The notes beneath the pieces are model-generated. The model did not search any database. It had not been told where the DNA came from and saw nothing but the letters and a program-made list of their open reading frames with translations. The position numbers were made by a program, and so were the translations under genes. Positions 54,430 to 56,936 of a stretch of DNA of 64,000 nt are shown piece by piece. Location: contig CAURUO010000002.1 in NCBI GenBank assembly GCA_963528515.1, forward strand, positions 31,234-95,233, given 5' to 3'. The stretch is from an uncultured Candidatus Saccharibacteria bacterium (GTDB lineage Bacteria; Patescibacteriota; Saccharimonadia; Saccharimonadales; Saccharimonadaceae). Position 1 is the stretch's first letter. Every line of letters begins with the position of its first letter.

Positions 54430-55509
54430 CTACTTTTTGGTATCGCAGTAATCTCTAGAAAACTGTTCCGGCACCTGCTGCAGCAAACGTTCGACAGCAT
54501 TTCCAAACCTTGCTGCGCCACCAAGCTTCATATGGCTTTCTTTTTCGATCCGAAAAACTTCAGACGCGTTGCCATCAGACGGAACAAAATTCGTCCGGTT
54601 AACTAACTCATAGTATAACTCGGCAGCACTCATATCTTCACAATCATATGGCAGCATCCCGTACAACCTCAGATTTTCTACGTAGCGTTTAGCCAATTTG
54701 TCGCTGACCTCTAACGCTTTATCTAATTGCAGCGTTTGCATGAAGTAATCATCTCTTGGGTCGCCATAAATATCGTCTGGCAGCTGGACGCTTTTAATAC
54801 TTACATCGTCAATCCCTTGAACTTGCATATCTGAAAGAAGCCGCACGGCCTTGAGAGCTAATTTATTGCCAATTCGATAGTCATAATCAGGATCGTGCTC
54901 AAATACTGTTGGCCTGATAACATGCTCAGCAGTATCTAATACCGCTTGCGTACTAGCCAACAGCCTCCAAGCATCATTGTCCTTGCGTATAAGCACTTGA
55001 TTGATTGTAAAATCGTGCTGCCCCATAAACTCGGCGGTAGATTGTACAGACTCCGCGCCATAACCATTCATTGTATCACGCGGCGAAAAACGCATTGAAA
55101 GATCGCTCGCTACCGCTCGAATCTCATCTGGATCATAATCACCGTTAGCAACAGTCTCTTCTAAAATTACCAGATCGACATCGCGCGGCGGCGGTAGCTG
55201 GCGGTCGCTATGTACTAGCGCCTCCAGAATCTGGCGAGCCGCCCCGCCCTTTACGCCAATAAATGGCGGCAGTTCGTCTAGATCAAAACCCAAATTAGCC
55301 CGCTCAATAGCATCGGCAGGTAATTCATATTCATATATTTCATTGCAGCGAGCTTCCGGGTTGCCAGGCTGCTCGCAATTATAATATTTCAGCTGGCAGC
55401 TAATTCCTCCAAATTCTACGCGGCGCTCGCCGCTATCAAGCACTTGCAAGGCGCGAGGTTGATGCATCTTCGCCTCTATATCACTCGGAGTCGGGCTTAA
55501 TTTTTCCAT
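54430..55509 (-). CDS. Divergent class II (CCA-adding/poly(A) polymerase-like) nucleotidyltransferase
   Basis: KGGAAR...PRDVDLV (motif A), HDFTINQ (motif B RDFTINA), LKAVRL (LRAIRF-like). Confidence 0.65.
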   Translation of the reverse strand: MEKLSPTPSDIEAKMHQPRALQVLDSGERRVEFGGISCQLKYYNCEQPGNPEARCNEIYEYELPADAIERANLGFDLDELPPFIGVKGGAARQILEALVHSDRQLPPPRDVDLVILEETVANGDYDPDEIRAVASDLSMRFSPRDTMNGYGAESVQSTAEFMGQHDFTINQVLIRKDNDAWRLLASTQAVLDTAEHVIRPTVFEHDPDYDYRIGNKLALKAVRLLSDMQVQGIDDVSIKSVQLPDDIYGDPRDDYFMQTLQLDKALEVSDKLAKRYVENLRLYGMLPYDCEDMSAAELYYELVNRTNFVPSDGNASEVFRIEKESHMKLGGAARFGNAVERLLQQVPEQFSRDYCDTKK

Positions 55510-55556
55510 ACTCGCTATTATAGCATAAACGATTTAAAAAGTCAAGCAAAGAAAAT

Positions 55557-55580
55557 ACCCCTCCTGGCGCGAAGAGGGGT
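55557..55580 (-). terminator. Terminator of the structured transcript
   Basis: ACCCCUCUU-CGCGCC-AGGAGGGGU followed by AUUUUCUUU. Confidence 0.7.
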
Positions 55581-55642
55581 CTGCCGCCCCGGCGAGAGTT
55601 GCAGCCAAACAAGGCCAGGCAACCCCCGCCGGGGTGGGGTGG

Positions 55643-55951
55643 CTATCGCTTGGACTTGAGCGGCAGCAGCCGCCAAGCCTCGCCGACGATCCTCCAGGGG
55701 TCCGACCCAATATACCGCATCGGCACCTTATTCGTAAAGTTGCCGATATATGTGATTTCACGGAGCCTCCCTGTCTCCGCGAAATCAAAAATTGCGATTA
55801 TGGAGCCGCCTGAGGGCGGCTCCATAATCGTCGTAATTCGTGTGGCGGGACGCGCCCCGCCCCGCCACACGAAATTCCGACTCGGCACCCCCAGGTGCCG
55901 AGTCGGAAGGAGGTTAAAAAAACTCTCAGCAAGAGAGAGTTCCTCGGCCAT
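55643..55951 (-). CDS. Hypothetical 102-aa protein encoded within the hairpin array
   Basis: AAGGAGG SD 5 nt before ATG; lies between promoter and terminator; no recognisable homology. Confidence 0.5.
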   Translation of the reverse strand: MAEELSLAESFFNLLPTRHLGVPSRNFVWRGGARPATRITTIMEPPSGGSIIAIFDFAETGRLREITYIGNFTNKVPMRYIGSDPWRIVGEAWRLLPLKSKR

Positions 55952-56231
55952 CTCGGCCTCCTTTCCGCCCCATCTGGGGCAATAGTGGAGCTCGATCCGT
56001 TACCGAGCCCTCTTTAGCGCCGTGAAAACCGCCGTTTCACAGTACTCAAGAGAGCTCGGATCCTGCCGTACATACGATATTCTAAAATGCGCCAGAGGCC
56101 GATCATCAACCAGCCCCTCGTTAATATTATAACACACTATTGTAGGTATTACTAGAATATTTACCAATATAATATCCCGATTTGAATGCATGATAAATAC
56201 ACGTAAGAGCCTCTCGTGTTATACTAAACCC

Positions 56232-56936
56232 ATGACCAAACGTATTCTCCTCAAACTCTCTGGAGAGCAGCTCCAGGGCGAGTTCGCCAGCGGCTTCGAT
56301 CCCAAGCGGGCCCGCTGGATTGCCGAACAAATCAAACCAGCGCTAGAAACTGGCGCCGAAGTCGTCATCATGGTTGGCGGCGGCAATTATGTCCGCGGCA
56401 ACCAAATCATCGGCCACGGCATCCAGCCTGTCTCAGCCCATAATATCGGCATGCTCTCTACCCTAATGAACGCCATTGCTCTGGCTGATGTCTTCAACGA
56501 CGCCGGCTTGCCGACCCGCGCCCTGTCCACTGTAGAAATTAATCAATTTATCGACCACTACACCTTCCGCCGCGCCCTCAGCCACATCGAAAAGGGCCGG
56601 GTAGTCATCGTTGCCTGCGGCACTGGCCGGCCATTCCTGACCACCGACACTGCCGCCCTGAACCTAGCTTTAGAAATGCAGTGTGATGTTGTCGTTAAAA
56701 CAACGAAAGTTGACGGCGTGTACGACAAAGACCCGGCTAAATTCCCTGACGCCATCAAATTCGACCACATATCTTATCACGATGTTTTGACCAACCCCGA
56801 CATCACCGTCATGGACAAGGCAGCCATCGGCCTGGCTATGGACGAACATATCCCGGTCATTATCTGCGACCTGTTGACCGACGGTAACATCGCCCGAGCA
56901 GCCCGCGGCGAGACAGTCGGCACGCTGATTAGCTAG
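56232..56936 (+). CDS. pyrH: Uridylate kinase
   Basis: RILLKLSGE, GGGN.VRG, GMLST.MN, PFLTTDT, VDGVYDKDP, VMD. Confidence 0.97.
   Translation: MTKRILLKLSGEQLQGEFASGFDPKRARWIAEQIKPALETGAEVVIMVGGGNYVRGNQIIGHGIQPVSAHNIGMLSTLMNAIALADVFNDAGLPTRALSTVEINQFIDHYTFRRALSHIEKGRVVIVACGTGRPFLTTDTAALNLALEMQCDVVVKTTKVDGVYDKDPAKFPDAIKFDHISYHDVLTNPDITVMDKAAIGLAMDEHIPVIICDLLTDGNIARAARGETVGTLIS

Follow-up and report, generated by a model that had tools for sequence, protein, structure and literature searches.

The window analyzed here is a whole stretch of 64,000 nucleotides (nt) from an uncultured Candidatus Saccharibacteria bacterium, a very small epibiont of other bacteria (GenBank assembly GCA_963528515.1, contig CAURUO010000002.1, positions 31,234 to 95,233). 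On its minus strand, between 56134 and 55550, lies a unit of about 570 nt that is packed with hairpins. We found that this stretch is an mRNA and not a noncoding RNA (ncRNA), and that the mRNA is predicted to be self-repressed. A first-pass annotation had left the choice between an undescribed large structured RNA, a structure-dominated mRNA, and a mobile-RNA-derived element. The noncoding option is not supported, because 54% of the unit is an open reading frame (ORF) under purifying selection, with a conserved Shine-Dalgarno (SD) site, start, and frame. The annotation had overlooked the SD site, the ATG at 55951, and the 102-amino-acid (aa) ORF, which contains seven of the stems that it had listed. 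Its mRNA option stands, and it is supported by covariation and by over-folding beyond synonymous shuffles. The mobile-RNA option has no support. The unit is a single copy at one site, there were no matches to reverse transcriptase (PF00078) at an E value of 0.1 in this 93%-complete genome, and the leader pattern had no match in viral contigs. The lack of a reverse transcriptase also speaks against an RNA linked to one, such as that of a diversity-generating retroelement or a retron.

The locus reveals a class of orphan genes, about 14 of them in this genome, that can be recognized from sequence. The genes have RNA control modules in common that have not been described before, their coding regions are folded, their codons do not match the genome, and alleles are exchanged as in an arms race. 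That the unit is something categorically new is conceivable, but we would not expect it.

Architecture of the unit

In the direction of transcription, the unit consists of an extended -10 promoter element, a 170-nt folded leader, a strong SD site, the 102-aa ORF, a 3' hairpin, and a terminator. Its features are as follows, in window coordinates.

56126..56134, minus: extended -10 promoter element, TGTTATAAT, conserved in an alignment of 21 homologues
56094..56118, minus: hairpin at the 5' end of the leader; 9 pairs, all of them formed in each of the 21 sequences, with one-sided changes only
56089..56094, minus: segment of 6 nt, invariant, that matches the terminator loop; over 5 counted pairs the pairing is 100%, with just two G-U variants (weak evidence)
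56003..56059, minus: long leader stem P3; 12+8 pairs, 96 to 100% paired; an analogous stem is present in two paralogous cassettes
55988..56010, minus: alternative hairpin formed by the 3' arm of P3 and the anti-SD strand; it excludes P3 and the SD-blocking helix alike
55987..55990, minus: anti-SD strand, which pairs with the SD site in the minimum free energy and consensus folds
55967..55980, minus: short GC hairpin directly before the SD site, common to paralogous cassettes
55957..55964, minus: strong SD site, -11.9 kcal/mol
55643..55951, minus: 102-aa orphan ORF with its ATG at 55951; the coding region is made up of seven hairpins
55945-55917, 55908-55875, 55873-55837, 55830-55795, 55787-55753, 55748-55718, and 55679-55653, minus: the ORF hairpins
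55584..55637, minus: long hairpin of the 3' untranslated region (UTR); 97 to 100% paired, 2 compensatory pairs
55550..55580, minus: intrinsic terminator, U-tailed, with a near-invariant loop

The element TGTTATAAT at 56134-56126 is invariant or nearly so in the 21 aligned homologues, and transcription probably starts near 56120. Five RNA sequencing runs with shares of 0.05 to 0.08 offer no evidence on its transcription. The strength of the SD site is unusual, because only 46 of 598 long genes of this genome attain even -10 kcal/mol.

The first-pass annotation described the outline of the unit accurately. It had reported ten stems, and all of them fold where it placed them. The extended -10 element and the U-tailed terminator are present as it described. 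Its assignment of the unit to the minus strand also held, with six stems more stable on the minus strand, three equal, and one marginally better on the plus strand. Mismatches become G-U pairs mainly on the minus strand (10 versus 2 on the plus strand), as it had noted. The segment is indeed GC-richer than the genome (0.61 versus 0.48), but the contrast is modest because an adjacent gene reaches 0.58. The unit is neither RNase P nor tmRNA, the true copies of which lie elsewhere in the genome (264 and 111 bits), and a resemblance of its 5' end to them was rejected. It is also not a CRISPR, repetitive extragenic palindromic, or attC array; the only matches within the unit are self-palindromic, and the stems lie inside an ORF. 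A search of Rfam returned no family at the gathering score (best E value, 0.13).

Two sites inside the ORF, 55937-55915 and 55830-55785, resemble terminators in that coding hairpins are followed by U-rich runs.

The ORF encodes a fast-diversifying protein

By DNA search, 27 of the 105 genomes of a single genus of Saccharibacteria each have one copy of the unit. A protein profile search recovered the identical 27 carriers. None of 400 other genomes of the order has the unit. The terminator motif was found in 21 named records, all from Ca. Saccharibacteria and one of them from a Ca. Nanosynbacter. We tentatively regard the unit as a monocistronic mRNA cassette of an oral, Nanosynbacter-like clade of Saccharibacteria.

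Both ends of the unit are conserved and the middle is not. The ORF is intact in 25 of the 27 carriers, where it encodes 102 to 120 aa, and it is frameshifted in the other two, in which the UTRs are intact. The encoded proteins are 21 to 71% identical to that of this locus, and the flanking orn and kinase proteins are 88 to 97% identical. Insertions and deletions in the ORF are in frame, and the SD site, start, and frame are conserved. The ratio of nonsynonymous to synonymous divergence (dN/dS) has a median of 0.43 among the 43 of 300 pairs with a dS of 0.05 to 1. These comparisons indicate that the ORF encodes a real, fast-diversifying protein of 102 to 120 aa under purifying selection. The divergence of the ORF is uncoupled from that of orn (Spearman coefficient of 0.03 over 197 pairs), and five of six pairs with identical alleles lie beside orn genes with a dS of 0.14 to 0.89. 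Alleles thus appear to have been exchanged between species, in the manner of an arms race.

The whole message is folded, including its coding region

The minus strand of 55550-56120 has a computed folding energy of -318.2 kcal/mol (z of -13.6), which none of 100 dinucleotide shuffles equaled. The plus strand reaches -282.4 kcal/mol. After GC correction, the unit ranks third in over-folding among 2734 genome windows. After removal of 2 broken and 8 near-duplicate copies from the 27, 17 distinct coding sequences remained. None of 40 synonymous shuffles of each folded as well as the natural sequence in any of the 17, with z values of -2.6 to -9.4; in 40 control genes the mean was 0.04 ± 1.1 and the minimum was -2.6. 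The sense strand was the more stable one in 16 of the 17, which disfavors a DNA cruciform for this gene family. In the 14-gene class described below, the two strands are close in stability (sense better in 8 of 14).

When the structure was laid on the 21 homologues, 81% of cells were paired, compared with 77% in shuffles and 41 to 50% in controls with a slid register. There were 214 double changes versus 110 in shuffles, and 0 of 500 shuffles reached that number; the structure was taken from one of the tested sequences, and the kin are not independent. Single coding helices keep their pairing in just 55 to 82% of cells, so the register of the coding stems drifts. The middle of the unit holds local hairpins only, with no conserved sequence and no tertiary-looking core. 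Together, these results indicate that the whole message, including the coding region, is under selection to fold.

The leader is predicted to conceal its own SD site

The leader is built of the 5' hairpin, P3, the anti-SD strand, the short GC hairpin, and the SD site. In the computed fold, the SD bases are paired with a probability of 0.64 to 0.95, and the leader is thus predicted to hide its own SD site. The alternative hairpin, which would compete for the anti-SD strand, is kept in 189 of 189 cells of the alignment, with 1 compensatory pair.

This leader is a module. Its pattern is present in 29 of the 105 genus genomes, and one leader precedes at least five ORFs without evident likeness to one another. 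RNAalifold was run on 24 leaders of several ORF families, and the alternative hairpin emerged unaided, with 7 pairs in 24 of 24 leaders and compensatory changes in 3 of the 7. The short GC hairpin is no evidence in this set, because it was used as the search pattern. A model of the leader found three clear copies and one weak copy in this genome. Beyond the genus, it gave 2 borderline matches in 149 genomes (E values of 0.004 to 0.006), and the exact pattern occurred in 1 of 200 genomes. Complementarity between the invariant 6-nt segment and the terminator loop is suggestive of a 5'-3' closure of the message.

In a genome of another, distant family (G289, locus L109), the pre-SD hairpin pattern stands before an ORF of 213 aa whose C terminus has a membrane segment, which may be due to chance. 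At L084, L092, and L106, a single genome has one leader type in tandem, each time ahead of a different ORF. Two unrelated cargoes of this set have identical first five codons, which hints at a swap point just inside the ORF.

A class of hairpin-dense cassettes in this genome

Scanning the genome for stems returned 29 rows of hairpin-dense ORFs led by an SD site. We kept 13 and added one full-length start, for a class of 14 genes. The 16 rows that were dropped were mostly opposite-strand or out-of-frame shadows of kept loci, together with three doubtful ORFs. The class has synonymous-shuffle z values of -1.8 to -8.1, which is expected in part, because the class was selected on folding. Other shared traits were not selected for: a 3' hairpin is common to six members, and a promoter and 5' hairpin are common to several. 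None of the 13 other class genes, nor a 14th candidate, passed the Pfam cutoff.

This promoter-leader motif, a second module, was found in 69 of the 105 genus genomes. Of 30 loci examined, 28 have an SD-led small ORF, and 26 of these are distinct; most are over-folded and two are not at all. Many cargoes look membrane-bound, several class members are short hydrophobic peptides, and 2 of 22 cargoes match the membrane family phrog_2169, annotated as host takeover, with an E value of about 1e-12.

Codon usage is foreign to the genome

The codon usage of the 14-gene class correlates with that of the Schaalia prophage xhp1 (r of 0.89) far better than with that of its own genome (0.27) or of 16 highly expressed own genes (0.55). 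However, three non-host high-GC phages give r values of 0.79 to 0.86. With G/C-ending codons only, the class has an r of 0.76 to the prophage, versus 0.62 to 0.79 to the non-host phages. The bias is therefore foreign but not provably host-specific, because non-host high-GC phages fit almost as well. The unit's own gene family is only weakly host-like (r of 0.44, log ratio of 0.09), with an r of -0.12 to its own genome. Simulations that selected for folding alone, starting from genome codon frequencies, stayed genome-like (r of 0.83) and gave shares of 0.09 for CCC and 0.56 for AAG, versus 0.35 and 0.95 observed; 2 of the 14 runs fell short of the target energy.

The proline codon CCC stands out. 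It accounts for 53 of 148 proline codons in the unit's family, where it occurs in all 17 alleles. In the class it makes up 33 of 85 proline codons overall and 14 of 30 where the third position is unpaired. The reference shares are 509 of 7954 in the genome, 70 of 843 in own genes rich in GC at the third position, and 21 of 306 in the genes that flank the unit in the carriers. ARAGORN found 45 tRNAs in the genome, and tRNA-Pro(GGG) was not among them. None of the 27 carriers matched a sequence pattern for this tRNA, compared with 64 of the 78 other genus genomes, whereas a control pattern for other proline tRNAs matched 27 of 27 carriers; the pattern may miss a divergent tRNA, and the carriers are one clade. 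The loss probably was one event in that clade. Because the epibiont has CCC at 6% of its prolines, it is able to read this codon.

The carrier clade is thus set apart by having lost tRNA-Pro(GGG). For CGY, the genome relies on tRNA-Arg(GCG) plus UCG, not ACG.

Predicted fold of the ORF product

An AlphaFold model of the product has a helix, five strands, and a helix, with a pLDDT of 85. A first structure model had no Foldseek match at an E value of 0.001, and its best Z score was 4.9. The AlphaFold model gave full-length, middling likenesses with Z scores of 5 to 7, the best being 7.1, to YbjN and type III secretion chaperones, RWD/UEV domains, and an immunity protein. The YbjN/chaperone/RWD-UEV fold is alpha-beta-alpha and, like the product, consists of a helix, five antiparallel strands, and a helix. 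Individual matches include 4h5b (Z of 6.6; 90 residues aligned; root mean square deviation [rmsd] of 3.2), 1s28 (6.4; 88; rmsd of 3.2), and the immunity protein 7zhm (6.0; 80; rmsd of 3.9). However, sequence identity to the YbjN/chaperone/RWD-UEV proteins is 7 to 11%, the scores are tied with those of unrelated proteins, and neither sequence nor profile comparison supports a relationship.

Sequence searches agree that the protein is an orphan. Pfam matched 0 of 10 family members, PHROGs matched 1 of 10 (E value of 0.023), a PDB sequence profile search gave 0 matches, and the Atlas yielded no more than leads. A search among longer proteins, which is a weak test, also gave 0. Two protein database searches returned 23 and 19 matches, all of them the protein's own kin except two long repeat proteins. 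No convincing homologue was found in phages. In a viral fold search, the best rows were nonsignificant and included some small actinophage proteins (E values of 0.07 to 0.2). Leviviral coat proteins were absent from all fold-search listings, which does not exclude them.

Five of the seven coding hairpin apices lie in or beside predicted protein loops (residues 20, 33, 47, 61, and 73), a count made without a control set. By this count, the RNA hairpins map onto beta-hairpins.

How the message may be used

The reading that we prefer, with some reserve, is that the mRNA is stable and kept in a translationally locked state, encodes a protein for interaction with the host, and is read by the epibiont's own ribosomes. 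In this model, a strong promoter would yield a long-lived, nuclease-resistant transcript. The lock would be set during transcription: P3 would be the first stem to form, so that the anti-SD strand stays available to block the SD site. A cue would later open the lock by letting the alternative hairpin take over the anti-SD strand, through processing, a protein, or refolding. The scheme is modeled on type I toxin mRNAs, and 5' UTRs that repress themselves and open by processing have been described (PMC11264685). Translation in the epibiont might take place, for example, upon attachment of the swarmer cell. The genome has the gear for it, namely, its own 16S tail with the anti-SD sequence and an encoded four-domain S1 protein. 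The product would be a small alpha/beta interaction module, most likely one in conflict with the actinobacterial host, as a decoy, immunity, or effector partner. The Esx-based host defense against epibionts (PMC13622651) offers, by analogy, a selective pressure that might act on the locus. Three points weigh against this model. Folds of 5'-truncated leaders give no clean release of the SD site in most of the 21 homologues or in 2 paralogues. The model leaves unexplained why these genes favor codons avoided elsewhere in the genome, CCC in particular, for which no cognate tRNA was found. The modeled fold is a common arrangement (best Z of 7.1) and assigns no function.

The codon usage may point to a different destination. 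The class codons fit the epibiont badly, so the messages may be written for the host to read. They would then be mRNA effectors, made by the epibiont, silenced and nuclease-proofed by their fold, exported to the attached actinobacterial host, perhaps through the relaxase-less type IV secretion system (T4SS), and translated there. We think this less likely than translation in the epibiont, but it deserves attention. It would account for the CCC excess in both family and class in carriers that lack the tRNA-Pro(GGG) pattern, and for a class codon usage close to that of a Schaalia prophage, which the folding-only simulations did not produce. The strong SD site and the long leader also favor it, in a genome that seems to have many leaderless or near-leaderless mRNAs: by crude start calling, a -10-like motif lies no more than 20 nt from the first ATG in 125 of 598 long genes. 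Many cargoes are membrane-like, two match the host takeover family, and the genome has a VirB4-like gene. The T4SS of Saccharibacteria is essential and lacks a relaxase (PMC10633639, PMC12102498), and its role in Patescibacteria is stated to be unknown (PMC11665869). However, the codon likeness is general to high-GC genes, the unit's own family shares it weakly, and the class was picked by hairpin density, which favors G/C. Schaalia is no more than a presumed host of this clade. The epibiont can itself read CCC, the tRNA loss is probably a single event, and we found no precedent for such export in the literature searched.

The codons could instead be those of a donor. Foreign, phage-like early-gene cassettes would keep the donor's bias. 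A strong promoter, a stabilizing leader, and a terminator would have come along with small genes acquired horizontally or been added around them, and folding would do no more than stabilize the message. One leader before at least five unrelated ORFs and a second module before varied ORFs in 69 of 105 genomes fit such cassettes, as do the cargo of a phage family, the small actinophage proteins among the nonsignificant fold rows, and natural competence (PMC10633639). We nevertheless find this account improbable. It explains the codons but neither the covarying coding stems nor the missing donor, since the database kin lie within the family except for the two long repeat proteins, the 400 other genomes of the order have no copy, and phages and viral contigs gave no convincing protein homologue or leader match. 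Moreover, the CCC excess persists in all 17 alleles despite a dS of 0.6 to >1. Still less credible is a type I toxin-antitoxin locus whose antisense RNA escaped detection. The long folded leader, the blocked SD site, the possible 5'-3' pairing, and the short hydrophobic peptides among the class members recall such loci. However, the product is a 102-aa protein with a globular model and not a peptide of <60 aa, there is no conserved antisense promoter or plus-strand terminator, and no complementary stretch of the genome scores better than an E value of 0.12. We give equally little credence to a noncoding or dual-function RNA in which the RNA acts and the ORF is incidental. The UTRs are far better conserved than the ORF and are intact in the two frameshifted copies, but a dN/dS of <1, in-frame indels, and a confident globular model argue for the protein, and the middle of the RNA has neither conserved sequence nor a tertiary-looking core.

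Comparison with known systems

OLE, ROOL, GOLLD, and HEARO are large ornate bacterial ncRNAs. The unit resembles them in its length of about 570 nt, in having its own promoter and terminator, and in its very low folding energy. It differs in that it has no Rfam match, more than half of it is a selected ORF, and it is a chain of local hairpins with sequence turnover. It also resembles the genomes of Leviviricetes (single-stranded RNA phages) and viroid-like coding RNAs, in which the coding sequence is folded throughout and initiation is governed by competing hairpins. Unlike these, it is a chromosomal single-copy gene with a sigma-70 promoter, without a replicase or reverse transcriptase and without a viral match. 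Phage early or moron cassettes, like the class, reuse a strong promoter, a stabilizing leader, and a terminator for small unrelated genes; however, the class is dispersed over the chromosome, its SD sites are blocked, and its coding regions are extremely folded.

The control of type I toxins appears, by analogy, to be the nearest working model. As is predicted for the unit, the tisB, zorO, shoB, and dinQ mRNAs have a long self-repressing 5' UTR with a hidden ribosome site, which processing probably opens (PMC11264685); in the unit, the conserved alternative hairpin would fit such an opening, but the truncation folds give no clean release. The unit cannot be counted among these loci by the size of its product, a 102-aa protein with a globular model, and no antitoxin RNA was seen in the sequence. 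Its coding region is itself fully folded, and it differs further in its foreign codon usage and in a leader common to unrelated ORFs. In the open-access literature searched, we found no description of such mRNAs.

How Patescibacteria act on their hosts, and what cargo their essential T4SS carries, is stated to be unknown (PMC11665869, PMC10633639). One answer, which we hold to be possible rather than probable, is a dispersed arsenal of mRNA effectors: modular cassettes, each with a promoter, a locking leader, an exchangeable cargo ORF, and a folded 3' end, whose hyper-folded, host-coded transcripts are delivered to the actinobacterial host and translated there. If true, this would be mRNA delivery from bacterium to bacterium, it would name a substrate for the relaxase-less system, and hairpin density together with codon mismatch would suffice to list the cassettes from sequence. 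Even the cautious reading leaves a leader that is new to translational control, along with a small set of genes that are candidates for host interaction, and Saccharibacteria are a genetically tractable group for such candidates.

Neighboring genes and other loci

54430..55509, minus: 359-aa nucleotidyltransferase-like ORF outside the unit, with its own promoter (55545-55517); PHROG E value of 0.003, with further leads from the Atlas
56232..56936, plus: divergent gene of the amino acid kinase family (PF00696, E value of 2.7e-29), presumably pyrH

The nucleotidyltransferase-like gene is specific to Saccharibacteria, occurs in two divergent types, and is split in two genomes. Its head carries what we take to be motifs of poly(A) polymerase or CCA-adding enzymes. 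We rejected a functional tie to the unit, because the gene has its own promoter and is near full length in only 8 of the 27 loci.

Several other cassettes have unusual 3' regions. L073 (C1:414300-415030) has the shared promoter, a probable 51-aa CxxCxGxG zinc finger ORF, and a long folded 3' region that holds a tRNA-Trp-like sequence not called by ARAGORN at its default setting. L061 (C1:391450-392100), C1:499555-500030, and L075 (C1:368200-368740) have a longer leader in common. Two of these three have similar long 3' regions, in which a CTGATGAG...CGAAAC-like motif is reminiscent of a hammerhead ribozyme core. At C1:158620-158920, a 5' tRNA-His fragment and its upstream sequence are tandemly duplicated ahead of an intact tRNA-His.
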